Source: Candidatus Micrarchaeia archaeon (lineage in GTDB: Archaea > Micrarchaeota > Micrarchaeia > CABMEP01). From it: a DNA stretch of 64,000 nucleotides. Location: positions 64,001 to 128,000 of the forward strand of contig JAVZXS010000001.1 in assembly GCA_038886535.1 (NCBI GenBank), in the 5' to 3' direction. Made by a program: the position numbers and the translations under genes. Below are positions 7,033-24,135 of the stretch, one piece after another (within the stretch, counting starts at the first letter, position 1; every line of letters starts with the position of its first letter). A model generated the notes under the pieces. That model saw only the letters and a program-made list of their open reading frames with translations. It had not been told where the DNA came from and searched no databases.

Positions 7033-7131
7033 AGCCCGAGAAGGGATTTGAACCCTTGACCTCCTGTTTACGAGATTCGCCGAAACTTTATTATAAGTTT
7101 CTCAGGCGCTCTACCACTGAGCTACTCGGGC
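7033..7131 (-). tRNA. tRNA-Thr(CGT) with a 27-nt intron at position 30/31 (intron 7076-7102)
   Basis: Removing AGAAACTTATAATAAAGTTTCGGCGAA gives a perfect arm CCTGT-CT-CGT-AA-ACAGG; splice sites form a bulge-helix-bulge. Confidence 0.93.
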
Positions 7132-7184
7132 TTAAATATTATTTCCAGATTATGTTTATAAAGGATATCAATAAATTATTAGAT

Positions 7185-8480
7185 ATGAAACATCTAGTGA
7201 TTTTAGTTTTAATTTCATCTTTTTTAATTTTCGGATGCATTGGAATCGAGGAAATAATTTCAGAGCCGACTACTTTTAGCTTGAATGGTACAGTTAAATC
7301 AATTAATGGAGATGCAATTCCAAATGCAAAGATAGAGATGATTTCTAATAAAACATACTTCACATATAGCGATGACAATGGTTTTTATAAATTTTCAAAT
7401 CTTACACAAGGAAGCTATAAAATAAGAATAACTAAAGAAGGATATAAGGATTATAATCTTTCATTTATTTTTTATCCTGGAAGCTATGATTGGAATTTTA
7501 CATTAGTTAAAGACTGTTTATATTATGAAATTCCAACAAAAAGAGATTATTTAGTTATATATGGTTATAATGGAACTTTGTATCGTACAGAATTAACTTG
7601 TGATTTACCTTATCCTGAAAATTCATTATTAAATATTTCTTTTGATGGAACAAAAAAAGATATTTATTATATTGGTCAGAATAGAATGGTACGACTTTCA
7701 ATCGATAATATTAATCAGAAATATAATTCAATCAAGTTCTATTTTTTAATTGCGCTTAATGGAACTAATAGCATAAAGATATTTGAAAGAAAGGAGACAA
7801 CTATACAGGAGGCTTCATCTTTAATGCAAAATTATCTTGGAGAAAGGACAATGACCGATGTTTCAACAGGAAAGACAAAGAAAATGATTGATCCAAATAA
7901 TGAAGAAATTAAGATGATTGTCACAGACATTAAGAAAAGAGTAAACAGTGATAATGTTTGGGATGTAGCAAGGGAATTATTCATTTGGCTTAAAAACAAT
8001 ACTTCCTATTTCAATCAAGGCGGGGTAGACGAATATGTTCAGTCTCCAGCTGAGATGATGAAATCAAGGAAAGGTGACTGTGATGAACTAAGCTATCTTT
8101 ATATCTCTCTTCTCAGGGCAGCAGGTATTCCTTCGAGATATGTAGAAGGGTTTTTAGCCAAAGAAAATGAAACTAGGTTCGTAAGGCATATGTGGGTTGA
8201 ATTTTACGATGGAGAGTGGGTACCAGTGGAGGTAGCAGGAACTGGAAAAATTGAAGATGAAGTTAATACTAATTTCGGTGTTGAAAGAAACATACACGTC
8301 CCAATCTTTATAGATGATGGGACACAGGCATCTTTCGAAAGAACCGGATGCAAATATAAGTATTATGTTCAAAAGCCAGAAGTATCAAATTATGCCTATT
8401 ATACTTCAATACCATTTGATGAAGCGTATATTGCAGTTTGTAGTAATGGAGAAAGATATATTACTTATCAAAAAGAATAG
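7185..8480 (+). CDS. Lipoprotein with carboxypeptidase-regulatory-like domain and transglutaminase-like domain
   Basis: Start moved to ATG 7185 because the longer ORF overlaps the tRNA; lipobox LIFGC; LNGTV..GDAIPNA..SDDNGFYKF; GDCDELS..LLRAAGIPSRYV..HMWVEFY..WVPVE. Confidence 0.85.
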   Translation: MKHLVILVLISSFLIFGCIGIEEIISEPTTFSLNGTVKSINGDAIPNAKIEMISNKTYFTYSDDNGFYKFSNLTQGSYKIRITKEGYKDYNLSFIFYPGSYDWNFTLVKDCLYYEIPTKRDYLVIYGYNGTLYRTELTCDLPYPENSLLNISFDGTKKDIYYIGQNRMVRLSIDNINQKYNSIKFYFLIALNGTNSIKIFERKETTIQEASSLMQNYLGERTMTDVSTGKTKKMIDPNNEEIKMIVTDIKKRVNSDNVWDVARELFIWLKNNTSYFNQGGVDEYVQSPAEMMKSRKGDCDELSYLYISLLRAAGIPSRYVEGFLAKENETRFVRHMWVEFYDGEWVPVEVAGTGKIEDEVNTNFGVERNIHVPIFIDDGTQASFERTGCKYKYYVQKPEVSNYAYYTSIPFDEAYIAVCSNGERYITYQKE

Positions 8481-8535: not shown

Positions 8536-9924
8536 ATGCCGCCTATGTTAAAAGAAATTCAAAATGAAAGAGAGGAAATAAATAAAATATTAGGAAAAAT
8601 AAAAGAAATAGCAGAAAGAAAAGTGACAGAATTCTCTATAAAAGATTTAGAGGGTGCAAAAGGGTCTTTTTTTAAGATTGAATTGAATATAAAAAATGAT
8701 AACTTTAAGAAAAAACTGATAAATGAAGTTTATGATTTTATTAGGGAAAATGGTTACCAGATTGTATTCAGATTGGGAGAGGAAAGTAATAAGTCAATAC
8801 TTTATATTGGGAAAAGTTATGCAAGAGAGATAAACTACTTTTTACCATCTAAAGACATCATTCAAGGTTTTATTGATGATGCAATAAAAAGAAAAAATCT
8901 TACTGGAAAGGGATCCGAGCTTTATGCAAATCCTAACATGGGAATATTAGTAAAAGTAAAAGATGGAAAGGTAGAAAACGTAGCAATCCTTTCAGGCGCT
9001 TCTATTTCAATCCCATTAAGGACAGGTACTTTTCAATTAGGACAATTAGAAAAAGGAGGATGGATCATACCCTCTGGAAGAAAGGGTTTTTCAGAACTAA
9101 GGGAGAGATATCCCGATTCTTTTTCTTCTTCAAACTCACCTTATCCTTGGAGTATATTTAATCTTATGGGATCAGCCAAAATATCATTTAAAGGAACAGA
9201 AAAGCTTCACTTCCGTTCTTTAATCTATCCTGGTTTTACTGGAGAGGCACCGTTAGGAAGTGAGGCAGGAATACTTGATGATCTTTACAATCAAACTACA
9301 GCAGGCTGCCTTTTTGTTGGAGAGGGTTCGTTCTACGCAATTAAGAAAGGGAATAAATACATAACTGGAACAGACGAAGAGATAAGAAAGAAAGATATTG
9401 GAGTCTTATTGCATAAAGGAGAACTTAATCTTGAGCCATTAGAAGTAGGAACTAGGTTAAGAATGAGGAATGGAGAATGGGCAACCCTTTCTCTTGACCA
9501 ATATAATAATCAGGTGTGGCTTGATGAAAATGGATATTATGTTCCCTTCGATTCCATAAACTTCGATTGGGATTCAAAAGAAATGCCTCAAATAGTATGG
9601 AAGCCACCAGAATTTGGAGAATCTAGATTTATAAATAATGAAATATCAAATAAACAGATTTATATAGATGATAAAAGATATTATATTGTGGAAAAAGATG
9701 ATAAATTACAGGTTGTTATATATCCTCAAAGATATTATACAAAAGGAAAAGATATGAAACAATTAAAAGAAGAAATAAAAGATAATTTGTCAAATCTACT
9801 TAATAGAAAAGATCTCGAAATTTCAGAAGATGAAATTAAAAACTTAGATTATGCAATTAAAATTGCACAACTTACACCTATTATGATAAATATTGACATT
9901 TCTAAATTTTACGCGGAGAGGTGA
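8536..9924 (+). CDS. Hypothetical protein
   Basis: 462-aa ORF, GTGAT SD-like motif; no recognised domain. Confidence 0.7.
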   Translation: MPPMLKEIQNEREEINKILGKIKEIAERKVTEFSIKDLEGAKGSFFKIELNIKNDNFKKKLINEVYDFIRENGYQIVFRLGEESNKSILYIGKSYAREINYFLPSKDIIQGFIDDAIKRKNLTGKGSELYANPNMGILVKVKDGKVENVAILSGASISIPLRTGTFQLGQLEKGGWIIPSGRKGFSELRERYPDSFSSSNSPYPWSIFNLMGSAKISFKGTEKLHFRSLIYPGFTGEAPLGSEAGILDDLYNQTTAGCLFVGEGSFYAIKKGNKYITGTDEEIRKKDIGVLLHKGELNLEPLEVGTRLRMRNGEWATLSLDQYNNQVWLDENGYYVPFDSINFDWDSKEMPQIVWKPPEFGESRFINNEISNKQIYIDDKRYYIVEKDDKLQVVIYPQRYYTKGKDMKQLKEEIKDNLSNLLNRKDLEISEDEIKNLDYAIKIAQLTPIMINIDISKFYAER

Positions 9925-9928
9925 TATA

Positions 9929-11467
9929 ATGTTAATTTTATTTCAACTTGCAATGCAAAAACCAGAACAAAAACTGACAGCAGAAAAACTTTTTGATAAT
10001 GCCAAATTGAAAAATTTAGAAAATAACGAAAGGAATGCATTAGAAAAACTAATTCAGCAAATGAGTTATGTGAACAACAAAGATTTTACTGATTCTGTAC
10101 GTAAATTCTTCAAATCAAACAAAGGAGAGATCAAATTTACAGGAATTTTTACTGCATCTGAATTAGATAATCTTGAGAAGGCACTTAATAAACTAGGCTA
10201 TAAATTTGAATTTTCAATCATTCCAAATGATGACGAACAAATTCAAAAGTGGTATAAATATACAAATAAAGATCCAGCTTTAGATATCAAAAATTTCATT
10301 AATTTCATGAATGGTGGTAGTGTTGAATTTGAGTTAAGTACGAGCAAAATATCAAAAGAATCTAATGAAGGAATGGACGGAACGCTTCAAGTTATGAATA
10401 TAAATATAACTACTATACAGAAAAATATTGATAATATTCAAGAAGATTTAAAAGGTATAAAGAAAAAGTATAATGATACATCTTCTACTCAAGTAGAACA
10501 ATCTAAATCAGAAGGAAAAAAAGAAGAGGAAGAGGTAAGAGAGCAAAAATCAGATGAAACATTGCAGAAAGCATTAGATCAAATTGGAAATATTCAAGTT
10601 AAAATTGGAGGCAAACAAACTAGAATTAATGAAATTTCATCTGCAAAATCTAAGCTTAAAAAACTGGAGCAAGGTCTTAATGAAGGAGAATCTGTTTCAT
10701 TCACTATGAATCCAAATCTAGTTATGATGAATAACTTAAAGGAAATTGCTAAATATTGGGCAGGAAAAGATGTAAAAGAAGAGCAGATTAGCGAAAACAA
10801 ATTTGTATATACTGGGGAAGGAGGGTCTTATGAAGTTAAGTATGAGAAAGGCCAATATATTATTACTCATCTTCAATCCATCCAAAAGAAAGAACCAAAG
10901 CAGGAAATAACAAATGTATTTTCTATGGAATTAATCATCAATGGAATAAACTTCAATAAGCCAGATACAGATGGTAAACATAAAGTTCAAAAGTTATTGG
11001 AAGGGAAAGAAGTAGAATATAATTATAAAGACTTTCCTAAAATCAAAGATGCATTCCTAGCTGAGATTAACAATAGAACAGGACGTACATATAAGTATGC
11101 GGCAGGTTATCCTAAACAAGTTGGTACTACTAATAAATATATCGTTAAATTAGAACTTGTGAGTGACGAAAAGTCAAACTCTTCATCTACGCAACCTCCG
11201 GAGGGAATGCAAAAACCAACAGAAACATCTAAACAAGAAAAAAAAGGTTCGACTACAAAAGAAACTAAAGAAGATATTTTAAATAATCTTTTAACTGAAA
11301 TAAACAAAAGCGAAAATTTAACGCAAACTGTGGCAAATATTCAGAGCGGTCTCCGTATATCTGTTTCTGCTGGTGAAATAACAAAGGATGATGCAATATG
11401 GATAGCGAACGAATTGAATAAAAAAATTTCTGAAAGAGATAGTAAATTAAAGATTACTATACTGTAA
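9929..11467 (+). CDS. Hypothetical Lys/Glu/Gln-rich protein
   Basis: GAGGTGAT SD before ATG 9929, directly after the upstream stop; low-complexity linkers. Confidence 0.7.
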   Translation: MLILFQLAMQKPEQKLTAEKLFDNAKLKNLENNERNALEKLIQQMSYVNNKDFTDSVRKFFKSNKGEIKFTGIFTASELDNLEKALNKLGYKFEFSIIPNDDEQIQKWYKYTNKDPALDIKNFINFMNGGSVEFELSTSKISKESNEGMDGTLQVMNINITTIQKNIDNIQEDLKGIKKKYNDTSSTQVEQSKSEGKKEEEEVREQKSDETLQKALDQIGNIQVKIGGKQTRINEISSAKSKLKKLEQGLNEGESVSFTMNPNLVMMNNLKEIAKYWAGKDVKEEQISENKFVYTGEGGSYEVKYEKGQYIITHLQSIQKKEPKQEITNVFSMELIINGINFNKPDTDGKHKVQKLLEGKEVEYNYKDFPKIKDAFLAEINNRTGRTYKYAAGYPKQVGTTNKYIVKLELVSDEKSNSSSTQPPEGMQKPTETSKQEKKGSTTKETKEDILNNLLTEINKSENLTQTVANIQSGLRISVSAGEITKDDAIWIANELNKKISERDSKLKITIL

Positions 11468-11817: not shown

Positions 11818-14800
11818 TTAATATCTTACTTTTAAGCCGAGATGTGCACTCCAATAAGTGTTGATTTTGCCATTGTAATTGAATTGATTAAGCGAAAGAC
11901 TACCAGAAATACGAACGTTTTCTTCCAATTTTGTTTCTGCTGAGAGTTTGGTGATTACTGATGACCATTTTCTTGATAAGGGATTGTAACCTGTTTCTTT
12001 ATAGTCTGTCTTTATAAGTTCGAAGTATCCAGTAAATCTATCTTTATCAGTCGCGTTTATACGCAAAGTATAGGAATCCCTTTCTCCCTTTAATAATTTC
12101 TCAATTTCTTTTGTTTCCCAATCTTGCAATGAATATCCAAATCCAATACCTAAAAGCCAATTGTTTTTTAATTCAAATGTTGGTTGGAAGAAATATATTT
12201 TATTATGGCTTTCCTCTTCCCTTGTTAGATGAGGTGTAAACCATTTACTATTTCTGTTATTTCCTTCATAATAACCAGTTATATCTGTTGAAAGTCCAAA
12301 GATTTTTGTTTTTATTATTTCCATCCCAATATGTACTAAATTCTCGTATATTTTATTTACATTACTGGTTTCAATATTAAGGTTATTACTATATTTATAA
12401 CTATCTTTTATTTTAGTTTCACTATAACCGAAATCAAGTTTAGTATTACCAAGAAATATAGTTGTATACGGATTCATTTTCGTTTTTAAATATTCATCAA
12501 ACGTTTTTGAATCTAAAGTTCCACGGAATTTAGTAGTTTCAGTTTTTTCCATTTTTTCGATTCCAAACCCGGGTTGTATCTTAGCACCCCATGCATAGAT
12601 GGTATTATATATCAAAACAGTAGAAAATTCGCTACCTTTAACCATCTTTTCTCCAGCTTTGCTCTCCCCATAAATTCTTTCATGATTATAATAGATTTTA
12701 TTTACAGTTAATCCAGATCCATTCGGATCTTTTGTTTGATATCTAAATTCTTCTCCCTTGCCACTTAGATATGTATCTACTTCATATGCCCATTCATCTA
12801 TACTCTTTTTATTAATATTCCAAAGTCCAGATAAGTTAAGTATTTTCTCAAAATGATAGTCAATTGATCCTATTACGCCGATACTTTTTTCTCTTCTTAA
12901 GTAGTCTCTTCTTTCTTCTTCCTCCGTTTTCTTTTGGAGTTCTTCCTTTCTTTCGGCTTTGAAGCCTGTAACTTTTATTTTGTCTATTACTCTAAAACCT
13001 TTGGTAATTACATTAAGCATATATTGTAGGTTTTCATTAGTTGCAATTCCATTGTCTATTAGTGGCTTTCCATCGTGTATAAATAAAGTAACTCCAGTTC
13101 CATCATCACGTCTATAATCAATCATTCCACCAATCATTGTAGTTTCTCCAAGCCAACCTCTCATAGTTGCTAAAGCTTGCTTTCGGTTCCTTTCTTCCCA
13201 CTTTAGCATAAGATCTTTATAATCATCTGCAGTTATTTCATTAATATTTCCTTGTTTCGTCAAATTAAAAATTCCTCTTGATTGGATTGGTTCTGTTGTT
13301 AAATAGTTTATACTTGAAGTGATTGTTGCTATACCTTTTGATCCGCCAATACGCGAAACTCCATTGACGTTTGTAATGTATTTTTCCTCATTATTTTCAT
13401 TAACATATCTTATAGTTTTCATTTCTATTTTTGAATCTATATAATTCATGTAACTCATCGAAGCTATATTTTGTATCAAACTAACTTTGATTGGAACCAT
13501 CTGATTTTGAACCGGTATTTGTGTGTCTTCACCTATATTAATTTCTACACTTTTATTATCTAACAGTGTTCCTTTTGAATCTGACATAGCAATGTCAAGT
13601 TTAGCTTTTAGTTCAATTCGAGATCCAATACGCATTCCTGTGTCACTAATTTGTAAGAATATTTCATATTTGTTTCCTTTTTCATCTCTTAATTCAATCG
13701 GTTTTGATGGTTCAACTGCTATTTCCATCCCTCTAAAATTAAGCTTAATTAATGTTGTCTGTTGCATGAATTTATCAATAGCTTTCGCTATTTCAGCTTT
13801 CGGCACTATTATTTCTATATTATATCTCTCATTTTCGATTGCCAAGGGAGTTGGTGTATTAGTTGGTATTTTATAACTATTTACAACTTGAATTGTATCG
13901 TCTTTGCCTTTCTTAACAAAATCCATCCAAACGTATACATTAGGTTTACCACTTTCATCTACTTCTATTATCGGATTTGAAATTCGATAGCCAACCTCAT
14001 CTTTCCAGTTGATCTCCCCTTTATAATTCTCTACTTCCGATTTACCTTTTGTCGTTATTTTTACAGTACAGTTGTTGATATTACCTAAATATGAAGGTAT
14101 ACCTGCCTTTTCAGCTATTTCTGCTGTTTGTAAAAGACCTTGGTATACGCCCCATAAAGTAGGATCGACTCTTCTTTCAGTAATTTTTTCATTTATCGAA
14201 GCATAAAAGAAATTTGGATCACCATTCATTTCATATATTAAAGATTTATCCTTTTCAGTTTTAGTAGAAAGAATAAAATATGCTCCAGTTTTTGCATTTA
14301 TACCATGTGTAAGAAGCGAATTTTCAGTTGTAGAATAGTACCTATAATAAGAAGGTCTTCCTCCTTTTCCGCCGAATAATGTATCAATAAGATCTGATGC
14401 TTCTGCTTCAAACACTTTTCTCTTTTTTGGATCTTTAGGCCACTCACCTCTAAAGTATTCTTTTGAGTAACTGTAATCACCTGTTTTATTGTAGTTTATT
14501 CCGTAAATTACTTGGGTTCCATCTTTATATCTAATTACTGCTACAGAATCAAAATGTCCTGTTGTTTCATTTTCCCATCTTTGACTATTCGCATTTAGAT
14601 AAAGTTCAAAACTATCGATGTTCGAGTGTTTTTCCTTTTCAATTGCAGATGAAAGCAATATTGTTTCAATTGTTTTTAGATCAAGAGTTCCATTAGGTTC
14701 AGTTTCTAGTGGTTTTTTCTTTTCTTTTTTGATAGAAATAGGTGTTTCAATATAACTACTGCCAGTTTCTTGTATTCGTTTCTGGAAATTTTTGATTATT

Positions 14801-15537
14801 TGCTTAGTAGCTGGATCGAATATATTTGATTTTATATCAATTTTTTCGTTATTATTTATCTTATTAAAGTTTTCATATATTTCTCTGATTGGAATCTCTA
14901 AATTTGAAAGAAAAGCTTTTCTTAGAGATTCATATTCGTCTCCTTTATACACCATTGCTAAATATACAATTGTATCTTCTAATGTAAGATTTTGTTTGTT
15001 TAATTCACCTATTAATTTATAGAACATATCATTAATTTGGTGGAGTCCTTGAGCATTAGCAAGATCTTGAATTGCCACATCAATATTTTTAAGTCGGCCT
15101 ATTTTTTCTTGAGGCAAAGTATTATTTATAATATTATCAATATTTTGTTTATTTTTTTTATCTAGTTTATCATAATAATTTTTCCATTCCTTTTCATACT
15201 CTTTATCTTTAATTCTTTTTTCAGCGATAGTAGCATAAGATATGCTTCCTTTTAACAATAAGTCAATATCATTTTTTACTTCGATTTTCTTTTTTTCTAA
15301 GTTGATAGTTTTCTGTGCACTCACTTTATCACCCATCCTTTCCACCTTTATAGTATTACTCATTTGATTTTTAAATCCTTTTATACTTGTGTCCTTTGCA
15401 TTTAGTGGAAGGATCAGTGGTTCAACTAGCAGAAGAGAAGCAAGTGTAATTCTAGCTAATCTTTCGATTTTTCCACTATTCTTATAGAATCTTAAATACT
15501 CTTTCTCCTGCATAAAATCAGCAAAAATAAGACGCAA
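11818..15537 (-). CDS. Very large hypothetical protein with a beta-strand-rich, barrel-like C-terminal region
   Basis: 1239-aa ORF (start uncertain: 15537, ATG of MGDK, or GTG 15324); last ~350 aa show alternating hydrophobic/polar strands; ends WSAHLGLKVRY. Confidence 0.75.
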   Translation of the reverse strand: MRLIFADFMQEKEYLRFYKNSGKIERLARITLASLLLVEPLILPLNAKDTSIKGFKNQMSNTIKVERMGDKVSAQKTINLEKKKIEVKNDIDLLLKGSISYATIAEKRIKDKEYEKEWKNYYDKLDKKNKQNIDNIINNTLPQEKIGRLKNIDVAIQDLANAQGLHQINDMFYKLIGELNKQNLTLEDTIVYLAMVYKGDEYESLRKAFLSNLEIPIREIYENFNKINNNEKIDIKSNIFDPATKQIIKNFQKRIQETGSSYIETPISIKKEKKKPLETEPNGTLDLKTIETILLSSAIEKEKHSNIDSFELYLNANSQRWENETTGHFDSVAVIRYKDGTQVIYGINYNKTGDYSYSKEYFRGEWPKDPKKRKVFEAEASDLIDTLFGGKGGRPSYYRYYSTTENSLLTHGINAKTGAYFILSTKTEKDKSLIYEMNGDPNFFYASINEKITERRVDPTLWGVYQGLLQTAEIAEKAGIPSYLGNINNCTVKITTKGKSEVENYKGEINWKDEVGYRISNPIIEVDESGKPNVYVWMDFVKKGKDDTIQVVNSYKIPTNTPTPLAIENERYNIEIIVPKAEIAKAIDKFMQQTTLIKLNFRGMEIAVEPSKPIELRDEKGNKYEIFLQISDTGMRIGSRIELKAKLDIAMSDSKGTLLDNKSVEINIGEDTQIPVQNQMVPIKVSLIQNIASMSYMNYIDSKIEMKTIRYVNENNEEKYITNVNGVSRIGGSKGIATITSSINYLTTEPIQSRGIFNLTKQGNINEITADDYKDLMLKWEERNRKQALATMRGWLGETTMIGGMIDYRRDDGTGVTLFIHDGKPLIDNGIATNENLQYMLNVITKGFRVIDKIKVTGFKAERKEELQKKTEEEERRDYLRREKSIGVIGSIDYHFEKILNLSGLWNINKKSIDEWAYEVDTYLSGKGEEFRYQTKDPNGSGLTVNKIYYNHERIYGESKAGEKMVKGSEFSTVLIYNTIYAWGAKIQPGFGIEKMEKTETTKFRGTLDSKTFDEYLKTKMNPYTTIFLGNTKLDFGYSETKIKDSYKYSNNLNIETSNVNKIYENLVHIGMEIIKTKIFGLSTDITGYYEGNNRNSKWFTPHLTREEESHNKIYFFQPTFELKNNWLLGIGFGYSLQDWETKEIEKLLKGERDSYTLRINATDKDRFTGYFELIKTDYKETGYNPLSRKWSSVITKLSAETKLEENVRISGSLSLNQFNYNGKINTYWSAHLGLKVRY
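15325..15352 (-). repeat. 28-bp repeat, copy 1 (TATAAAGGTGGAAAGGATGGGTGATAAA)
   Basis: Identical to 19393-19420 in the opposite orientation; encodes IKVERMGDK in both large ORFs. Confidence 0.9.
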
Positions 15538-15654
15538 ATGAGGTTAATAAACTTTCCGCCATCCAGGTATTAAGCTTTATATATTTTTTCTAAGTTAATA
15601 TATTTTACAGTCTTAACTTATGTTTTGACTTATTAAATTATCTAAAGTGATGTT

Positions 15655-16137
15655 ATGTCTCTTTATAAGCAAATTCAGGAAACGTTCCAAAAGGAATATA
15701 AAGAAAGATCTCCTGCCTACAGGGCAAGAATATCTCAATGGAGAAAAGAGTCTCCAATCGTTAGAGTGGAAAAACCTACAAACCTTGCAAGAGCAAGAAC
15801 ATTAGGTTACAAGGCGAAGGATGGATTTGTAATAGTAAGAGTGAGAGTTAAGCGAGGAAAGAGGAAGAGACATATTCGTATGAGAGGAAGAAAGCCTTCA
15901 AAGACAGGAAGATTCTATTCAAGGCACAAATCACTTCAACTTATAGCAGAGGAAAGAGCAGGAAGAAAGTTCAGGAATCTTGAGGTTCTTAATTCATACT
16001 TTGTAGGAGAAGATGGTCAATACAAATTCTATGAAGTAATACTTGTAGATCCGGAAAAAACAGGTTTGAAGCTTCAAAAAGGAAGAGTATTTAGGGGTCT
16101 TACCTCTCAAGGAAGAAAGATGAGAGGATTAAGATAA
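15655..16137 (+). CDS. rpl15e: 50S ribosomal protein L15e
   Basis: [42 protein letters not shown]. Confidence 0.97.
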
Positions 16138-16180
16138 ACCTAATCTTTTATTTCTTTTTCTTTTAACTTATTTTGATAAT

Positions 16181-16627
16181 ATGTATTTTGACATAGTTGA
16201 CTTTCCTATTGATGAAAGTATAGAAAAAAAGAGCCAGTTTAAATTCTATAGGTTGTCAGATATTAAAGACCTTTTCCTAGTAGGAGATCCAGAAAAAATA
16301 ACAAAGTTAATAAGAAAAGGAAAGATTCTCTACTGTCCTAAATATGAGATATCCTTAGAGATGTTTGCAAAGGCAAAATCACTAAATAAACCATTTTTGA
16401 TCTCTCTTTCAGACATTATAACTGAAAAACCACATTTAGCAATTTACAGGATTTCAAATTTCATAAGAGTTGGAAGGCATTATAAATTGAAATTTATCAT
16501 CGCTTCATTTGCAAAGGATAAATACTCGGTAAGAAGCATAGATGAAGCTGCATCAATAATGAGACTTTGCGGAATGAGCAAGGATCAAGTAAGGCAGTCT
16601 TTCATGCTTATTAAAAGATATCTATGA
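16181..16627 (+). CDS. rnp3: RNase P protein Rpp30-like (short, divergent)
   Basis: Conserved position between rpl15e and Pop5; weak similarity (IIASFAKDKYSVRS). Confidence 0.6.
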   Translation: MYFDIVDFPIDESIEKKSQFKFYRLSDIKDLFLVGDPEKITKLIRKGKILYCPKYEISLEMFAKAKSLNKPFLISLSDIITEKPHLAIYRISNFIRVGRHYKLKFIIASFAKDKYSVRSIDEAASIMRLCGMSKDQVRQSFMLIKRYL

Positions 16628-16655
16628 ATTATGATTTTTATGATTTGGTGGTTTC

Positions 16656-16979
16656 ATGAAAGCTACTCTAAGAGAGAATTACAGGTATGTTGCAATAGAG
16701 ATTATTTCAGAGGTTCCTTTAGTTAAAGACGATCTTATTTCCATACTTAGGAACGACTTATTGACTTTAATAGGTAAAATCCATTATTCAGATGTAATGC
16801 CTAATCTAGCTTATTTTGACCACTTGAATCAAAAGGCAGTTATAAGATGCCTGAACAAGGGAACAGAGGATTTGAAGACTGCTTTGGCTCTTTTTAATTC
16901 ATACAAAGGAAAAAAGATTCACCTTAAAGCAATTTATACGTCTGGTACAATAAAGAAAGCTAAGGAAGTAATTAGATGA
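16656..16979 (+). CDS. rnp2: RNase P protein Pop5/Rpp14
   Basis: TLRENYRYVAIE, AVIRC, TSGTIKKA. Confidence 0.88.
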   Translation: MKATLRENYRYVAIEIISEVPLVKDDLISILRNDLLTLIGKIHYSDVMPNLAYFDHLNQKAVIRCLNKGTEDLKTALALFNSYKGKKIHLKAIYTSGTIKKAKEVIR

Positions 16980-17003
16980 TACTTTAAATTTGTTTTTTAC
17001 AAC

Positions 17004-17948
17004 TCATGCTGCTTTTTGCAATCTATCTAAAGCAGAATAAGCAAGAAGTAGACCTTCTATCTCTATTTTTGTTTGTTCTTCAATTTTCTTTGCATTAGGA
17101 ACAAAATTTTTCCATTTTTCTGCTGCTTCCTTCACCATTTCTATAGAAATGTTCTTGTCTCCACTTGCAACTTTTCTGAAAAAAGAAAGACTTCTTTCTT
17201 TTATTTCTTTAACATTTTCAAGATTTTTTGTAAGTTGGTCTATTTTGGCTTGTATTTCTTTCTTTATATTTTCCATTAAATGAATTTCTTCATTACTATA
17301 CTCTCTTTTATTCTTAAATAATCCTTTATACTGATATATAATGTTAGCAAATTCCTTACTCATCAAACCTGCTAATGAAAGATCTATTTGCCCGACCATG
17401 AAGTTATTGAATTTTTCTGCATCTTCCATTCCCATTAACATACCTTTATAATCCACTCCTCTTTCTTTTGCAATTTCTATACTATTTCTATATATTTCTA
17501 TTATGTCTAGGTAATATTTTCTTATTTTTATATTATTCACATTCTCTTCTATTTCAGCATTTCTGAGATTTTCTATTGCTTCTTTAGTTTTATTGAGTCT
17601 TTTACGAATAGATGGTTCATTTATGAGTTCAATAACTGCTAAATTATCATCTCGTAATTTCAATGTTTCTTTGTTAATTTCTTCCCTTCTTATCCAGTAC
17701 GCCATTATCTTAAATCTATTTCCATTATACTTACCATCTTTATCATAAAGTATAATATTCATTTCTTTTTCAAGCATCTTACCAAAATTAGGATTGTCTT
17801 TAATTTTATTATTTAAATCAGAAATTTCACGAATTAATTCTTTCCTTTGAGTAGAATTTAAATTAGTGAAATTTTTGAATTTTTTATTAATTTCTTCATA
17901 TTTCTTTTTTATCTCTTCATATTTATTTTGTTCTATCTGTTTTTGCAT
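17004..17948 (-). CDS. Hypothetical helical protein
   Basis: 314-aa K/E/N-rich ORF. Confidence 0.65.
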   Translation of the reverse strand: MQKQIEQNKYEEIKKKYEEINKKFKNFTNLNSTQRKELIREISDLNNKIKDNPNFGKMLEKEMNIILYDKDGKYNGNRFKIMAYWIRREEINKETLKLRDDNLAVIELINEPSIRKRLNKTKEAIENLRNAEIEENVNNIKIRKYYLDIIEIYRNSIEIAKERGVDYKGMLMGMEDAEKFNNFMVGQIDLSLAGLMSKEFANIIYQYKGLFKNKREYSNEEIHLMENIKKEIQAKIDQLTKNLENVKEIKERSLSFFRKVASGDKNISIEMVKEAAEKWKNFVPNAKKIEEQTKIEIEGLLLAYSALDRLQKAA

Positions 17949-18045
17949 AATTTGATATATATTTTATGATTTAAATATTTATCTTTTTAAGAAACAAAAG
18001 GCAAACATATTTAAATAATAATGTACTTTAGTATATTGTGGTGAC

Positions 18046-19170
18046 ATGAAAGAAGGTGGAAAGATGACTCAAGTTCAAAAGGAAAAATTTGATATTGATA
18101 AATTTATAAAAGATTATTTAGATCAAGTTGCACCTAATTCTTTTATAGAAAAAATAAGGTTAAATAATGATATAAAGTTGATCCGTTCTGACCGAGAAGG
18201 TATTATCATAGAATTTAAAGACGAATCTCCAAGAAATAAATTTCTTGAATCTTTAGATAAAGGCTATAATGCTAAAAAATATTATAGATTTGGAATCAAG
18301 ATCAAATCAGATGATCTTATAAACATGTATAGAGAAGAGACAGAAAAATTAGAGCAACAAAAAGTTATTGAGGAAGTTAAACCTCAAGAAATTGAAATTT
18401 CTTCCATTCCTATCGCTGAAATACAAGAATCTACTCAGTCTTTAGAACAATCAATTAAGGAAATGGAAAAAGTAATAGACAAAATACAGCCAGAACAAAA
18501 AAATAAAAGTGACAAATTAAAAACAATTAAAAAATGGACAAAGGAGTATTTCGAAGACACAAAAACAGTTTTGAAATTTGCTAAAGAATATCTCTCTGGG
18601 AAATATAAGGATGAAGCTATAAAGGCAGAAGAAACTAAACAAAAACTTATACAATTACTGACTAATAAAAATAAAGAATTAACTGAAAAACTAATGGAAG
18701 TTAAAAAAGAGCTTGCTGTAGAGAAAGAAGAAAATAAACAAAAGATAGTAGAGCTTGAAAAGAGGCAACAAGAAATTTTAGCACAACAGAAATATTTATT
18801 GAATCTATTAGAAGGAGGCAAAAAAATAGGTAAAAAGATAAAAGAAGAAGAGTTAGAGAAAAAACCTATGGAGAAACAAGTAGTTTCTGTTTCAACAGCG
18901 ACAGTTTCTAATACGTCTCAATCTCAAACCATTGCGAAATTCAGTAAATTAGAAGATATTAAAGAAGAAATAATTAATAGTGTTGGTAAATTAACAAATA
19001 CACCTAAAGATAGCATATCTCTCAATCGAAGCGATTTTGATACTACTTTTTTAAACGATCTTTTAAACAAGCGGCCTTCAGAAGTAGAAGTAAAGATAGG
19101 TAACAAAAATATAACCTACGTTATAGATGTAAAACAAAAATTTGTTATTTTAAAGATGAAAAAAGAATAA
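18046..19170 (+). CDS. Hypothetical coiled-coil protein
   Basis: 374-aa ORF; alternative start ATG 18064 after AAGGTGGAAAG. Confidence 0.65.
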   Translation: MKEGGKMTQVQKEKFDIDKFIKDYLDQVAPNSFIEKIRLNNDIKLIRSDREGIIIEFKDESPRNKFLESLDKGYNAKKYYRFGIKIKSDDLINMYREETEKLEQQKVIEEVKPQEIEISSIPIAEIQESTQSLEQSIKEMEKVIDKIQPEQKNKSDKLKTIKKWTKEYFEDTKTVLKFAKEYLSGKYKDEAIKAEETKQKLIQLLTNKNKELTEKLMEVKKELAVEKEENKQKIVELEKRQQEILAQQKYLLNLLEGGKKIGKKIKEEELEKKPMEKQVVSVSTATVSNTSQSQTIAKFSKLEDIKEEIINSVGKLTNTPKDSISLNRSDFDTTFLNDLLNKRPSEVEVKIGNKNITYVIDVKQKFVILKMKKE

Positions 19171-19249
19171 TAAGTAACTTTATTTATTTTTTATTACTGG
19201 GGTTTAATACAAGCGAAAGTTATTTTAATTCCAATATTCTTATTATAAT

Positions 19250-22200
19250 ATGTCTATTCGTGATTATAAGAAGATAGCTTTAATCAGAGTAAATAAACTC
19301 ATATTTTCATCTTTTCTTCTTTTTGAGCCACTATTTGAACCAATATATGTAAAAGAAACAAAGGTATTTAAATACATACAAAATAATAGTAGTATAAAGG
19401 TGGAAAGGATGGGTGATAAATTGGCGACTGCACAGAAGCAAAAGGAAGAACAGGAAAAGATTCAAATAGAATGGCCTATTGATTCTTATAAAAAATTAGA
19501 TACTATTTATAAAATCATAAAAGAACTTGAATCAAAATTAGATAATAAAAAGAAAAAGGAAATAGAAAAAATATTAGAGTCAGTAGGTTATAGAGGTCTA
19601 ATTTCTGCTATAGAAAATTATAGAAATGGCTTAGTTGAAATGAAAGTGCCAGAGAATTATGCAAATATGAAACGCGATGGTTCTATAACTTTTTTCATGG
19701 AAGCTAAAATGTTTTTCCTTGTAGCATATATCACTGAAAACGAAGAAATGGCTAATGCAGTATTAGATGCTATTAAAAATAGAAAAAAAATCGATATAGG
19801 CTACTATATGGGCGGGTATGGAAAAGGAACGAAATATTTTCTTAACCTTAATCCAGAGAAGTCACAAATTGCAAGTCTTTATAGAGTCTTAAAAAGATTA
19901 AAAGAAGAAGGTTATGATATTTCTCAAATAGATTGGAATGGAGTATCTTATGATACTGGTAAAGGAAACCCATTTCAGAGGTTAGATGAAATATATAGCG
20001 CAGGTGAATATCCTCAAAATTATGAGGTTGAGATGTACAATTTATTAAAGAATTATATCTCTACTAAGAAGACAAATAAACCTCTTAGAAATGTAGACAT
20101 GGATCCGGAAAAAGGTAACGTGATTCCTGATCTCACCCTTAGAGAAATGTATGGTAAAACTAAAAATGAAATAAATAAACTTTTAATTGAATTGATTTCA
20201 AAGTATCCTGAGGTTGCATATTTTATACCAGATATATATTCGGATATTACAAGTATCTTAGTCAAGGAAGGATTTAATAAATATATAGGAGATCCAAATA
20301 ATAAAGATAAAGGAAAGCTATTTGAGAAAAAAATGGATGAAGCTGTAAATTACATGGAGGCATTAAAACTATGCTTCGAGAGTATAGAACAAAACATGCC
20401 TAAAATAATTGAAGCTATTCAGAAAAAAGATTTTCTTAAATTATACCCACCTCTTGTAGCGAAATTAATAAGCGACAGCATTCAAAATAAAGACATAAAT
20501 CTAGAAAAAATGTCTAAAAATGATATAGAGTCGCTTAGAATTAAAATTATCAGTTCATTTCTTACTAATACGTTACCAAACTACGCTAATTATTCAGAGT
20601 TGCATATAATTTCTAATCCTTGGTTTAAAGCAATTTATTTTGATGGAAAAAAGAGAATCAGTGCAACATTAACAGAGAAGGAGGTACAAAATGCAAAAGA
20701 AATTCTTAAGAAGAAATGGGAATCTTTTATTTTAGTACCTAAAGATATAGTAACTACAAAAGAAGAGAGAGATCCAACCTTTGATTCAATATCGGATACA
20801 ATTTACAATGATATGGATGCGAAAGTATACGTATTCGATGTGAAAAAAAGACAATACACTAAATATGTTAATGGTTCATTCCCATTAATACTTCAACCTA
20901 TAAATACCACTGCCCTTCGAAAGACAGTTGGAATTGGGGAGAATTGGCCAAGGGGAGACAGATTTAATATAGATTTAGGTTGGTTTGATAAAAATTATTT
21001 GTTAGAAGATGGTTGGAAATTTTCTAACAGCTATATTGATAAAACCTCTAAAGAAAAGATAGAGTTATATCAGAGAAAAGATGAAACATTAGAAGTCATA
21101 TTAAAAAACGAAGAAATTATTTCATTTAACTATTATCCGTGTCCATTAAAAGTCTTAGGTTTATTCGAATTCACAAGAGCAAAATTAATTACAGTTCAAA
21201 AAACTGAAGACGGATTTAAAATAAGATGGGAGATTATTCCGCCGTATGGCAGATACAGTGGTGCAAAATTATTAACTAAAAATAATTTTGCATTTAATAG
21301 AGACAAAAGGGATGCTAGATTATCATTTGTTGAAAGGGAATATTTACCAAAACCTCCAATTATTCCTTCAGCTACATCAAGAATTAGCGTTCAAGGTCTT
21401 TCATTTGATCCCAACTCATTCTATAGCGTTGCAAATGATTTGGGAATAAATATAGATTATTTAAATAATCTCTATTATTCTTCTATAGATTTGGAAAAAG
21501 CATTATCTTCTGGAAGAGAAGAAGATATAAACAATGCAGCTTGGAAATTAATTCAATCTGCAAGAGATTTTACCTCTGTAATATGGGATAGTAAATTAGC
21601 AAACGATTCTTCGCTTTCAAATTCAGATAAAGAATTTCTGCAGTCATTTAAAGATGGCAAAGTAAACGACTTAAATAGATGGATAGATATAATGAAAGGT
21701 AGAAATTATGGAGGTGCTGCGGATCTTAGTAGAATATTTTTAGCTAAGAGTCAAGCCACAACCGATATCACAACCTCTATGAAAATTAATACCTTTTCAA
21801 TTGCATTAGAGAAGCCCATTAATATGATTCCTTTGAAAGATGCTTCAATATTATCTTTTTCAGGTATAACTTATGGAAGAGCAACTACAAAGTTAGATGG
21901 AATGCTGACTACTACAATACAGGAAATAAATCCAGATGGTACCTACAGTGATCCAATTGTGACACAGCAGAAAATTCATTTTGAAGAAAGCGATGGTTTA
22001 TGGGGTGGGACTTTTGATTTTGGTCGTACTAAAAAAGGAAAGTACGGTAGTTTAAATCTTCTTTTTGGTAATGGTTTTAGGCACTTTGATTTTATTGGAG
22101 CAGGAGATAACATTGTTGATTCGATTTTGACTAAAAAAAATCTATTGCAGATAATTGCAAGCATACCTCAAGCAACTAAGTTAAGTTACACTCAATACAA

Positions 22201-22585
22201 CCTTTTTGGTACTGATTATTATAGCACACGTATAGAAGCAAAATATATATCTTTATCACCACTATCTGACTTATTATATTTGTTAACTGGAAAGAAGGTC
22301 TCTCCCGTATTAGACCTAGGATTAGGTGACATATTCGAATATGATAAAAAAGAAGGTATGAAGTTGAATAAAGAAAAGTTCTCATATGTCGAATCCACAT
22401 TTAATCTCGGTAAGGCATCTACATACATTAGAAAGGAGTTAGGTGGAACTAAAGCCACAGAGATTTATGCATCTTGGAAGAAACCATTTAATGTCGACTT
22501 CTTAGACGAGGTTGGAATGTATGGTAGATGGAATGCTTTGGAAGGCTCTAATTACGGCTTTTCAATTAAAATAGGATTAAAATAA
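19250..22585 (+). CDS. Very large hypothetical protein with a beta-strand-rich C-terminal region; N-terminus related to 11818-15537
   Basis: 1111-aa ORF; LLxEPLxxP...IKVERMGDK..AQK shared; amphipathic strands ending NYGFSIKIGLK. Confidence 0.75.
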   Translation: MSIRDYKKIALIRVNKLIFSSFLLFEPLFEPIYVKETKVFKYIQNNSSIKVERMGDKLATAQKQKEEQEKIQIEWPIDSYKKLDTIYKIIKELESKLDNKKKKEIEKILESVGYRGLISAIENYRNGLVEMKVPENYANMKRDGSITFFMEAKMFFLVAYITENEEMANAVLDAIKNRKKIDIGYYMGGYGKGTKYFLNLNPEKSQIASLYRVLKRLKEEGYDISQIDWNGVSYDTGKGNPFQRLDEIYSAGEYPQNYEVEMYNLLKNYISTKKTNKPLRNVDMDPEKGNVIPDLTLREMYGKTKNEINKLLIELISKYPEVAYFIPDIYSDITSILVKEGFNKYIGDPNNKDKGKLFEKKMDEAVNYMEALKLCFESIEQNMPKIIEAIQKKDFLKLYPPLVAKLISDSIQNKDINLEKMSKNDIESLRIKIISSFLTNTLPNYANYSELHIISNPWFKAIYFDGKKRISATLTEKEVQNAKEILKKKWESFILVPKDIVTTKEERDPTFDSISDTIYNDMDAKVYVFDVKKRQYTKYVNGSFPLILQPINTTALRKTVGIGENWPRGDRFNIDLGWFDKNYLLEDGWKFSNSYIDKTSKEKIELYQRKDETLEVILKNEEIISFNYYPCPLKVLGLFEFTRAKLITVQKTEDGFKIRWEIIPPYGRYSGAKLLTKNNFAFNRDKRDARLSFVEREYLPKPPIIPSATSRISVQGLSFDPNSFYSVANDLGINIDYLNNLYYSSIDLEKALSSGREEDINNAAWKLIQSARDFTSVIWDSKLANDSSLSNSDKEFLQSFKDGKVNDLNRWIDIMKGRNYGGAADLSRIFLAKSQATTDITTSMKINTFSIALEKPINMIPLKDASILSFSGITYGRATTKLDGMLTTTIQEINPDGTYSDPIVTQQKIHFEESDGLWGGTFDFGRTKKGKYGSLNLLFGNGFRHFDFIGAGDNIVDSILTKKNLLQIIASIPQATKLSYTQYNLFGTDYYSTRIEAKYISLSPLSDLLYLLTGKKVSPVLDLGLGDIFEYDKKEGMKLNKEKFSYVESTFNLGKASTYIRKELGGTKATEIYASWKKPFNVDFLDEVGMYGRWNALEGSNYGFSIKIGLK
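19393..19420 (+). repeat. 28-bp repeat, copy 2
   Basis: TATAAAGGTGGAAAGGATGGGTGATAAA, inverted relative to 15325-15352. Confidence 0.9.
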
Positions 22586-22611: not shown

Positions 22612-24135
22612 TTGTATTTTCTACGATCCAATGTTTCCATATTTTACTTTATTATATTTCTTTCTTCTTTAATTAACGCCATAGATATTCAAACAATATT
22701 TTTATCACACATTAATAATCAATATAATGCTACAGTGAGATTTAACGCTGTAATTCCGTTTAATATATCTTATGGTTCAGTTATAGTAACAAATGGGAGT
22801 TATGTTTGTACTGGTTCTCAATTAGGTTTAACAGCAAATAATATCACTACATTTTCTCCAATTTCGGTTGTGGTTGAATGTCCTCGTGAATGCTCTACTT
22901 ATTCTTCTCCATCATCTTCTTTCCCACAATCTATTTTATGGATTTCAGAAAATGCCTATAATGCAAACAAATCACAATACAATATTACAAGATCTTGGTG
23001 TAATTATAGCAGATTCGCTCAACCCGAACATCCTTTGGCGCAATATAATTATACTTCTATTTATAAATTGCCAGTTAAGCAAACTTCTGGCATTGCAAGT
23101 TTGGGTGTTTTTTGTTATGGGAACATTTCTTTTTATGAGAACAACAATCAAATATCTTCTCCATTCACAGTTTCTTCAACTGGATTAGCTTATTTGTCTG
23201 CAAGATTAATTACAGGAGAATGTTCTTTGCTAGCTAGATCATTTGAGACATCAGGTCCTACTTTAGATTGCTGGTATAGTAATCAAATGTTAAATAACTA
23301 TGTATTTGAAAATTCCACTGAAATTAATGTAATTTCAGGTCCAAACCTTACCCTCACTCCTACTCAATCTGATTATGTTGTGACACCTGGGGGAACGGTA
23401 ACATTTAGGTTTAAGCTAAATAACTCAGGTGATATGAATGCTACTATTTCTGGAGTTACAGTATCTGACGGTTTTTCAGTTGATTCATTTTCACCTTCAA
23501 CTATAAATGCGGGAGAGGTTGTAGATTTTACAGTGTCAGCAACAGCACCCAGTCTGCAGGCAGGAACAACCGTCACTCCTACCATAAGTTTTGACTTCAA
23601 TTCTACAGTTCCAATAATAGGTACATGTGGTGCAGCATCGGTTGCAAATGTAAATGTAGGAAATGTACTTATTGGAGACATTAATCCAATAAATGTAAGG
23701 ATTTATGCAACTCCATCAGGATTCTTTAATGAAGGAAACACATTTCTTCCTTCAAAGTTGAATATAACAGCAAGAATATGGAGAGAAGATCCACCTAATC
23801 TATATTTGAGTGACGTCGTCACGAACATATCAATCTATTATTATAATACAACTCTCAAGAACTGGAGATTGAAATTTGATGTGACCGGCATTTCTGGTTC
23901 AACTGGTTCAGCTACCGAAGATGAAAGAAAGATAGCGTGGTGGAATAATGCAGAAGGAATATTCATTAATCTGAATGAAACAATTTCATCTTCCTCTCCA
24001 TTTAGCTATGTGCCTGGCGTTTATAAGGTTGAAATCAGATCTTATGATGGTGCAGCAACAAGAGGAAGCAAGATTCAAACTGATTCTAGCTATTTTGTAA
24101 TATTCAACCTTCCAGGATGTGCAAGAAAGGTATAA
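22612..24135 (+). CDS. Secreted/surface protein with an Ig-like (CARDB/NEW3-type) domain
   Basis: Signal peptide (IFYFIIFLSSLINA); S/T/N-rich with many NxS/T sequons; VTPGGTVTFRFKLNNSGD. Confidence 0.7.
   Translation: MYFLRSNVSIFYFIIFLSSLINAIDIQTIFLSHINNQYNATVRFNAVIPFNISYGSVIVTNGSYVCTGSQLGLTANNITTFSPISVVVECPRECSTYSSPSSSFPQSILWISENAYNANKSQYNITRSWCNYSRFAQPEHPLAQYNYTSIYKLPVKQTSGIASLGVFCYGNISFYENNNQISSPFTVSSTGLAYLSARLITGECSLLARSFETSGPTLDCWYSNQMLNNYVFENSTEINVISGPNLTLTPTQSDYVVTPGGTVTFRFKLNNSGDMNATISGVTVSDGFSVDSFSPSTINAGEVVDFTVSATAPSLQAGTTVTPTISFDFNSTVPIIGTCGAASVANVNVGNVLIGDINPINVRIYATPSGFFNEGNTFLPSKLNITARIWREDPPNLYLSDVVTNISIYYYNTTLKNWRLKFDVTGISGSTGSATEDERKIAWWNNAEGIFINLNETISSSSPFSYVPGVYKVEIRSYDGAATRGSKIQTDSSYFVIFNLPGCARKV

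Follow-up and report, generated by a model that had tools for sequence, protein, structure and literature searches.

Two giant proteins, P0001 (giant protein A) and P0002 (giant protein B), are encoded in the window analysed here, a stretch of 64,000 nucleotides (nt) of contig JAVZXS010000001.1 (GCA_038886535.1) from a Candidatus Micrarchaeia archaeon, a tiny inhabitant of hot springs. Both are real genes under purifying selection. They share a conserved leader, are under modular selection and keep their position in related genomes, and a beta meander is predicted for the C-terminal region of P0002. The explanation favoured here, as a tentative one, is that they form an autotransporter-like pair of exported envelope or host-contact proteins, in which a constrained C-terminal beta domain would anchor a diversifying passenger. 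The membrane barrel itself is unproven.

The source genome (G000), 88% complete, comprises 40 contigs with a total of 1.14 Mb. The window is AT-rich, with a GC content of 0.28-0.36, and carries archaeal housekeeping genes for L15e, the RNase P subunits Rpp30-like and Pop5, the proteasome alpha subunit and SBDS. P0001 (-) and P0002 (+) are arranged divergently around the L15e/RNase P operon and two K/E-rich proteins. A sequence-only reading of this DNA had proposed two giant open reading frames (ORFs), of 1239 amino acids (aa) at 11818-15537 (-) and of 1111 aa at 19250-22585 (+). Both were confirmed, and all the strings quoted in it were found in the translations, including the last strands SAHLGLKVRY and YGFSIKIGLK. 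The database record of P0001 starts at Met9, whose ATG at 15513 is a possible alternative start, and has 1231 aa. Related loci come from G093 and G304, two genomes of the same genus, and from G230, which belongs to another genus of the same family; the suffixes a and b denote their type-A and type-B positional giants (G304a, G304b, G230a, G230b). Ratios of non-synonymous to synonymous substitution rates (dN/dS) were computed between G000 and G093. The two genes, their parts and the gene that follows P0002 are:

11818..15537, - strand: P0001 (giant protein A), 1239 aa from a TTG start (ORF list, translation)
15313..15537, - strand: leader of P0001, residues 1-75, its only strongly hydrophobic segment (KD19 1.82)
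12958..15312, - strand: variable passenger of P0001, residues 76-860, without family match; dN/dS 0.24-0.35
11821..12891, - strand: C-terminal beta-rich domain of P0001, residues 883-1239, ending ...YWSAHLGLKVRY; 99% identical in G093
19250..22585, + strand: P0002 (giant protein B), 1111 aa (ORF list, translation)
19250..19438, + strand: leader of P0002, residues 1-63, KLIFSSFLLFEPLFEPIY..KVFKY..IKVERMGDKLATAQK
19439..21346, + strand: passenger of P0002, residues 64-699, with the family-invariant motifs GYGxG..Y, GNP, IDP and NPxF
21410..21694, + strand: helical bundle of P0002, residues ~721-815, in the AlphaFold model, ahead of the beta region
21737..22573, + strand: predicted beta meander of P0002, residues 830-1108, ~12-13 strands, last strand YGFSIKIGL(K)
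22612..24135, + strand: CARDB-like exported protein, 507 aa, sequon-rich (Pfam CARDB, E 9e-5), 26 nt 3' of P0002

Whole-gene dN/dS is 0.26 for P0001 and 0.35 for P0002, and 0.01-0.15 for the housekeeping neighbours. Within P0002, values of 0.79 (residues 71-350) and 0.38 (residues 351-699) are followed by 0.03 (residues 700-819) and 0.065 (residues 820-1111), while P0001 has 0.12 for residues 861-1231 and 0.24-0.38 for the rest of the protein. Both genes are therefore truly coding, and within them the C-terminal module is constrained while the passenger is relaxed or diversifying.

According to the sequence-only reading, the two proteins share an N-terminal block and have dissimilar middles. 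Both points were borne out by BLASTP, which aligns the N-terminal blocks with 38% identity over 93 aa (E 2e-9) and finds no significant similarity beyond them. The suggested check of the genome for further proteins with the leader motif returned the two giants alone, as VERMG(D) is present in 2 of the 5794 six-frame ORFs of at least 50 aa, namely P0001 and P0002. Each giant has one N-terminal hydrophobic segment, and the leader consists of a basic n-region, a 9-residue h-region and a Pro-containing stretch. Its conserved parts are the h-region SSFLLxEPL and, after it, the block FKNQ..IKVERMGDK..AQK; in P0001, the hydrophobic ITLASLLLV-EPLILPL and a possible cleavage site (LNA/KD) precede this block. 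Small-residue candidate cleavage sites are found in several members (LNA/K, VSEA/K, PVSA/E). The leader of P0001 is 50% identical to that of G304a over 135 aa and is also common to G304b. Because it is conserved, unlike ordinary signal peptides, across bodies diverged beyond recognition, we infer a dedicated export or sorting leader, which can be used as a handle for finding further such proteins.

G230a has a typical signal-like N-terminus directly before a PG_binding_1 domain (E 6e-12, 46 bits, cut-off 23), a family that is typically extracytoplasmic. This putative peptidoglycan-binding domain occupies residues 69-122 of the 1146-aa giant (L018 4592-8032 (-)) and is noteworthy in an archaeal giant, as the known hosts of the lineage have no peptidoglycan.

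Relatives were searched with phmmer over all 1.84 billion representatives. For P0002, five relatives were retrieved, three of them full-length (P0005, 1127 aa, 32% identity; P0006, 1220 aa, 31%; P0007, 1175 aa, 28%) and two fragments, in addition to a 90% identical copy. Their source names are metagenome-assembled genomes (MAGs) of Nanoarchaeia/Candidatus Jingweiarchaeum, Micrarchaeia and Aenigmatarchaeota, with one partial sequence in a bacterial bin, and these labels may include binning errors. P0001 is 23% identical to the congeneric G304a over 887 aa outside the leader. The two giants had been described as orphans. This holds with regard to families, since no Pfam or NCBIfam model matches either of them at E<=1, but not with regard to homologues, given the five relatives and the copy of P0002 and the orthologue of P0001. 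No Pfam, NCBIfam, PHROG or PDB sequence match was found for the passenger of P0002, and PDB sequence searches with the family profiles gave nothing meaningful. Word-indexed homologue searches with P0001 and P0002 returned only near-identical copies. The P0002-family profile did not recover P0005-P0007; it had no match in metagenome contigs, matched only the G093 and G304 equivalents in genome contigs and found no relative in 2.9 million viral contigs. P0007 (L029 81-3608) starts past the hydrophobic part of the leader, at ...KGKDFKNQM, with its start 80 bases from the contig end and no open frame upstream, and may be a leaderless variant or an assembly-edge artefact.

Two giants flanking the L15e/RNase P operon are conserved in G093, G304 and G230. 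The G304 locus is fully syntenic, its neighbouring genes being 72-96% identical to those of G000, and two genera share a stable synteny around the L15e, RNase P, proteasome and SBDS genes. In G230, giants of 1146 and 1356 aa flank the same operon. Of these, G230b belongs remotely to type B (hmmsearch E 1.5e-8, colinear pieces), and no similarity of G230a to P0001 could be detected. When 401 genomes of the phylum were searched with each profile, matches came from the own genus alone (G000, G093, G304). These searches under-report the family, because the positional homologues of G230 were missed and the locus is unassembled in G051 and G273, as judged from L15e being absent there too. In five genomes of four other families (f3, f4, f5, f8), the L15e neighbourhood is not syntenic and holds no ORF with the family leader or the aromatic C-terminal end. 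Near L15e of G001, ordinary signal-bearing ORFs of 977 and 1664 aa are present.

Over its full length, P0002 has 32% identity with a protein (P0005/P0010) of a MAG labelled Nanoarchaeia/Candidatus Jingweiarchaeum. With its same-genus positional orthologue G304b (L011 4319-7477), it shares the leader alone by BLASTP, and hhalign gives a 96% probability over residues 12-389. P0002 is thus nearer to a protein of another DPANN lineage than to its same-genus orthologue, which suggests allele replacement or lateral exchange. These comparisons hint that the gene was exchanged laterally among co-resident DPANN, or else at MAG binning errors.

The C-terminal regions of the two giants were compared with known folds in several ways. 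In a language-model search (ESM Atlas features), the nearest clusters of P0001 residues 883-1239 are the CymA porin (0.96, 172 of 256 features), the C-terminal domain of LptD, BBP2 and SlipAM, with scores of 0.94-0.96. For P0002 residues 820-1111, they are DUF6850 (0.91), Omp_AT/Autotransporter (0.88-0.90) and one viral cluster (0.90). In both searches, all ten of the ten best family-bearing matches fall within one family or clan. Shuffled proteins reach 0.95 in about 1 of 100 cases and 0.9 in about 4-10 of 100, a calibration that covers whole proteins and leaves protein parts uncalibrated.

An AlphaFold model of P0002 residues 700-1111, based on a 7-row alignment with effectively four lineages, has a pLDDT of 69.4 and a pTM of 0.54. 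It consists of a helical bundle (model residues 22-116, pLDDT 81-95) and then ~12-13 meander strands, of which only the last three are clearly amphipathic (0.6-0.8 hydrophobic on one face vs 0-0.4 on the other). The model was compared with 48,161 chains using VIA-align, where a Z below 8 may, by the tool's own caveat, mean merely a common arrangement. In the unbiased search, the best match is the BrkA translocator with Z 6.8 (120 residues aligned, root-mean-square deviation (rmsd) 6.0 Å), and AIDA-I (Z 6.2), FhaC (6.0) and EstA (5.8) are also matched; 14 of the best 25 rows are membrane barrels, and the others include small soluble barrels. In a second look, 22 of the best 25 rows are membrane barrels, among them VDAC (Z 7.0), EspP (6.7; 141 residues, rmsd 7.4) and LptD (6.3).

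The type of last strand is conserved as [YW]-[GSN]-phi-x-phi-x-phi-[GP]-phi-x-aromatic. Five of nine family or positional relatives end in F, W or Y (P0001 Y, P0005 F, G304b F, G230a F, G230b W), vs 116 of the 944 ORFs of at least 150 aa of the genome, and a strict end pattern (aromatic end, hydrophobic residues at -3, -5 and -7) is present in four of the nine vs 10 of the 944. The nine proteins in these counts are related by descent or position and are not independent, and P0001 itself prompted the comparison. The remaining four have the same strand followed by 1-13 extra residues.

Based on these results, P0001 and P0002 might represent a lineage-specific pair of exported envelope proteins with three modules each. 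The first would be the dedicated leader, which combines a Sec-type n/h/c layout with the conserved SSFLLxEPL...FKNQ..IKVERMGDK..AQK block and would carry the chain over the cytoplasmic membrane. The second would be the large passenger, which diversifies quickly, may even pass from one co-resident DPANN lineage to another and would be on display to make contact with host or environment. The third would be the constrained C-terminal beta-meander domain with its amphipathic, often aromatic-terminated last strand; it may form a barrel-like sheet by which the protein is held in the outer layer of the envelope, or in a lipid layer belonging to the cell or to its host. Export, barrel closure, membrane insertion and a function in contact are each inferred for the giants.

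Such an arrangement resembles the type Va autotransporters (BrkA 3qq2, EspP 3slo, AIDA-I 4mee, EstA 3kvn), which likewise combine a leader and an extra block with a variable passenger and a conserved C-terminus, the C-terminal ~300 aa holding ~12 meander strands preceded by a helix. The best neighbours of the P0002 model include type Va translocators (Z 5.8-6.8), and the aromatic-terminated last strand is present in five of the nine giant family members. Some large autotransporters have an extended signal-peptide region as well. However, the giants match neither PF03797 nor another outer-membrane-protein family, the genome search finds no BamA or TamA, the structural similarity of the P0002 model stays under the level of a shared fold, and a hydrophobic belt is not evident. 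They are, moreover, encoded by an archaeon whose relatives have a surface layer (S-layer) and not a lipid outer membrane, according to the sources cited below. Because the sequence family match and the Omp85 machine both fail, the giants would work like an autotransporter without being members of that family. Monomeric barrels (CymA, OmpG, the C-terminal part of LptD, BBP2/SlipAM) provide the nearest language-model clusters of the P0001 C-terminus, at the 0.94-0.96 mentioned above, and the structural neighbours of the P0002 model include OmpG and LptD (Z 5.0-6.3). These are stand-alone proteins of diderm bacteria that are inserted by BAM, whereas the barrel-like domain in the giants, whose homology to them and closure are hypothetical, is the tail of a 1100-1240-aa protein.

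Several results weigh against the favoured explanation, first of all those on the C-terminal domain. The single-sequence AlphaFold model of P0001 residues 883-1239 is unusable (pLDDT 29), and because this model failed, the case for a barrel in P0001 is confined to the language-model features and the end motif. In the P0002 model, the last third has a pLDDT of 34-65, and strands 1-3 have lengths of 25-33 residues. On most of the modelled strands, 40-55% of the residues of either face are hydrophobic, so no lipid-facing belt is visible. There is no structural match at Z>=8 in either VIA-align look, and with Foldseek neither the PDB nor the viral library yields a match at E<=0.001. The structural check proposed by the sequence-only reading has therefore a divided outcome: a meander with mainly membrane barrels as neighbours was obtained for P0002, but all Z values are below 8 and the P0001 model failed. 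The same applies to the proposed signal-passenger-barrel layout, of which the three modules are supported but a closed barrel with a hydrophobic girdle is not demonstrated. Neither the two C-termini nor six relatives match an outer-membrane-protein or autotransporter Pfam family at E<=10, and G230a and G230b likewise match none. Among the C-termini of the P0001 type, the P0002 type and G304b, hhalign finds no homology (probability below 1%), and they can therefore not be pooled into one alignment.

The outer-membrane-type last strand claimed for both giants stands for P0001, whose ...LGLKVRY end fits the beta-signal, and agrees with the enrichment in the family, but P0002 ends with ...IKIGLK, in K and not in an aromatic residue. 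The C-termini had further been described as alternating hydrophobic/polar strands, which a crude count does not place above chance: strict dyad segments in the last 350 aa number 8 in P0001 vs a shuffle mean of 4.8, and 5 in P0002 vs 6.0. By the same crude count, the density of alternating segments in the middles of both giants is similar to that in the last 350 aa. Alternation is weak evidence here, because it is neither above the shuffles nor denser than in the middles.

The envelope context also weighs against this explanation. Omp85 (PF01103) and POTRA (PF07244) have no match at E<=1 in the 88%-complete genome, while control genomes were matched, and the Omp85/BamA-like insertase that had been proposed as a check was not found at that threshold. 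According to Sakai et al. (2022) (PMC8784108), inner and outer membranes are seen by transmission electron microscopy in the cultured Micrarchaeon ARM-1. Gfrerer et al. (10.1101/2021.04.28.441871) describe an S-layer over the cytoplasmic membrane in Micrarchaeum harzensis, and Johnson et al. (PMC11329633) reinterpret the outer layer of Micrarchaeota as an S-layer and report a 21-nm barrel-shaped complex under the S-layer of ARM-1. The premise of a second membrane, on which the sequence-only reading had relied, is weakened by this reinterpretation, which draws on cryo-ET and freeze-etch work, and by the lack of Omp85 and POTRA matches. A full-text literature search found no paper linking Micrarchaeota to a beta-barrel and none joining 'archaeal outer membrane' to porin.

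The composition of the giants is a further point on the same side. Their charged fraction is 0.28-0.29 vs a cytoplasm-like median of 0.285, and sequons are at or below chance (11 vs 12.3 expected in P0001, 6 vs 8.9 in P0002). The list of other ORFs of the genome with a signal and a length of 600 aa or more has 13 entries; ten combine a charged fraction of 0.10-0.20 with 1.1-4.4 sequons per 100 aa, and the other three have 0.23-0.28 and 0.1-0.5. Such a composition argues against permanently exposed surface proteins. Like archaeal S-layer proteins (SlaA/SlaB of the Sulfolobales and those of Micrarchaeum harzensis, 10.1101/2021.04.28.441871), the giants are large, fast-evolving and lineage-specific with N-terminal signals, and an S-layer is the documented outer layer of cultured Micrarchaeota. 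However, they are highly charged and have no sequon enrichment, a distinction drawn from composition. An identity as S-layer proteins is disfavoured on both these grounds, and the large sequon-rich exported proteins of the genome are better S-layer candidates. To our knowledge, no protein of an archaeal outer membrane other than Ihomp1/Imp1227 of Ignicoccus hospitalis has been characterised. It is a small alpha-helical pore protein, neither a beta-barrel nor a giant modular protein like the two described here.

The leading alternative places a soluble module at the C-terminus. The giants would then be exported proteins with a beta-rich sandwich or open sheet that docks to the S-layer or to the CARDB-like partner, with no membrane barrel, and we regard this as somewhat unlikely. 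Language-model features of both C-termini indicate membrane barrel families and not sandwiches, and the structural neighbour lists are dominated by membrane barrels, although all Z values are below 8 and 11 of the best 25 unbiased rows are something else, with soluble small barrels mixed in. The P0002 model, with its long polar strands and no hydrophobic belt, would suit a soluble sheet, and an alternating pattern is expected of any amphipathic sheet and is not above chance here; the enrichment of the aromatic-terminated last strand speaks for a barrel. A docking module would also agree with an envelope of S-layers and not outer membranes, as described for cultured Micrarchaeota, with the insertase that was not found in the genome and with the pair of giant and CARDB-like gene, which is conserved in G304, G093, G230 and the P0007 contig. 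On the other hand, the giants have neither the sequon enrichment nor the low charge of most large surface proteins of this genome.

Membrane beta-barrels are regarded as a signature of bacterial, mitochondrial and plastid outer membranes. A bolder version of the favoured explanation, in which the Micrarchaeia family makes outer-membrane-type transmembrane beta-barrels without Omp85 that anchor or translocate giant leader-bearing proteins, as an archaeal analogue of type V secretion, seems rather unlikely. If true, it would mean either a real lipid outer layer in the lineage or insertion of the barrel into the host membrane, or else large envelope barrels like the 21-nm docking complex under the ARM-1 S-layer (PMC11329633). 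Real barrels would reopen the nature of the outer layer in these archaea and raise the questions of how insertion proceeds without BAM and by what means DPANN symbionts make contact with their hosts or pierce them. Should the domains not be barrels, the locus still offers a concrete fast-evolving candidate pair for host contact.

Another possibility might be a host-directed pore or translocon, in which the beta domain, once exported, inserts in the host membrane as a single chain or an oligomer, while the cytoplasm-like passenger exerts its effect on the host or within it. No insertase of the own cell would be necessary, and a composition rich in K and E but not enriched in sequons would agree with a protein lacking permanent exposure at the surface. 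The long hairpins of 25-33 residues in the model recall the stems of pore formers, as do the weak Foldseek rows to beta pore-forming toxins of the aerolysin/lysenin/MACPF type (lysenin pore, E 7.5e-3, TM 0.10; perforin-2, E 3.3e-2; pleurotolysin), which are however insignificant (E>=7e-3, TM ~0.1). A fast passenger and a P0002 that is nearer to a Nanoarchaeia-labelled protein (32%) than to its same-genus orthologue would fit an arms race, unless the MAG labels reflect binning errors. We consider this explanation, in which host and delivery are conjectural, improbable.

The giants may also be structural proteins that are cytoplasmic or tethered to the membrane at the N-terminus and not exported, their barrel likeness being an artefact of composition or beta propensity. 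In this regard, the leader of P0002 is only weakly hydrophobic (KD19 1.31, KD11 1.64 vs at least 2.4 in the signal-like set of the genome) and without a clean AxA-type site, which also counts against the favoured explanation. The cytoplasm-like composition, the neighbouring K/E-rich coiled-coil-like proteins without signals, the low or middling model confidence and a language-model calibration that does not cover protein parts agree with this alternative. The n/h/c layout is conserved, however, with plausible cleavage sites (LNA/K, VSEA/K, PVSA/E) in most members, and G230a has its PG_binding_1 domain directly after a signal-like N-terminus. In addition, two independent C-termini both adjoin outer-membrane barrel clusters. 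We regard proteins that stay inside the cell as decidedly improbable.

That the giants come from an integrated virus or a mobile element, as its structural or receptor-binding proteins, is highly improbable and was disfavoured. One viral language-model cluster among the top ones of P0002 (0.90), the patchy distribution and the rapid divergence could be cited for it, but P0001 and P0002 have no PHROG match, no relative in the 2.9 million viral contigs and no viral fold match (Foldseek E<=0.001), and are embedded in stable chromosomal synteny (L15e, RNase P, proteasome, SBDS) across two genera.

Among the neighbouring genes, the CARDB-like protein carries 19 sequons vs 10.3 expected. A type-B giant precedes a CARDB-like gene in G304 and G093 as well, and also on the P0007 contig; in G230 this order is partly retained. 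A functional pairing of the P0002-type giant with the CARDB-like protein is plausible. The CARDB-like proteins of 500-516 aa (window 22612-24135 (+), L029 3623-5173, L011 2775-4277 (-)) have a conserved C-terminal tail with a single Cys just ahead of a short basic end, which reads ...FVIFNLPGCARKV in the window and G304 copies and ...FVIFNASSCVKRI on the P0007 contig. This Cys tail could be a lipid-attachment or sorting signal.

A transglutaminase-like exported protein is encoded at 7056-8480 (+), with Transglut_core (E 2e-19) and CarboxypepD_reg domains; its locus is conserved and it is 79% identical in G304. Since the leader block of the giants is rich in invariant Gln and Lys (FKNQ, AQK), one may speculate that this protein could cross-link them.

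The Rpp30-like RNase P subunit of the window (16181-16627 (+)) has a Pfam match of 21.3 bits, under the curated cut-off of 35, and is a very diverged or shortened Rpp30 as judged from this match. In another Micrarchaeia genome, the L15e gene (G006:C2:107688-108194 (-), L020) has one in-frame TGA within the match, which could be a sequencing error, a pseudogene or recoding. The K/E-rich proteins next to the giants, which have no signal, are fast-evolving as well: those at 9893-11467 (+) (524 aa) and 18046-19170 (+) (374 aa) have 29% and 36% local identity to G304 and dN/dS values of 0.41 and 0.54 vs G093, respectively. In G230, proteins of 570 and 558 aa (L018 11255-12967 and 13053-14729) have a common C-terminal ...R(I/V)RVVGDSKLEA... 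motif.

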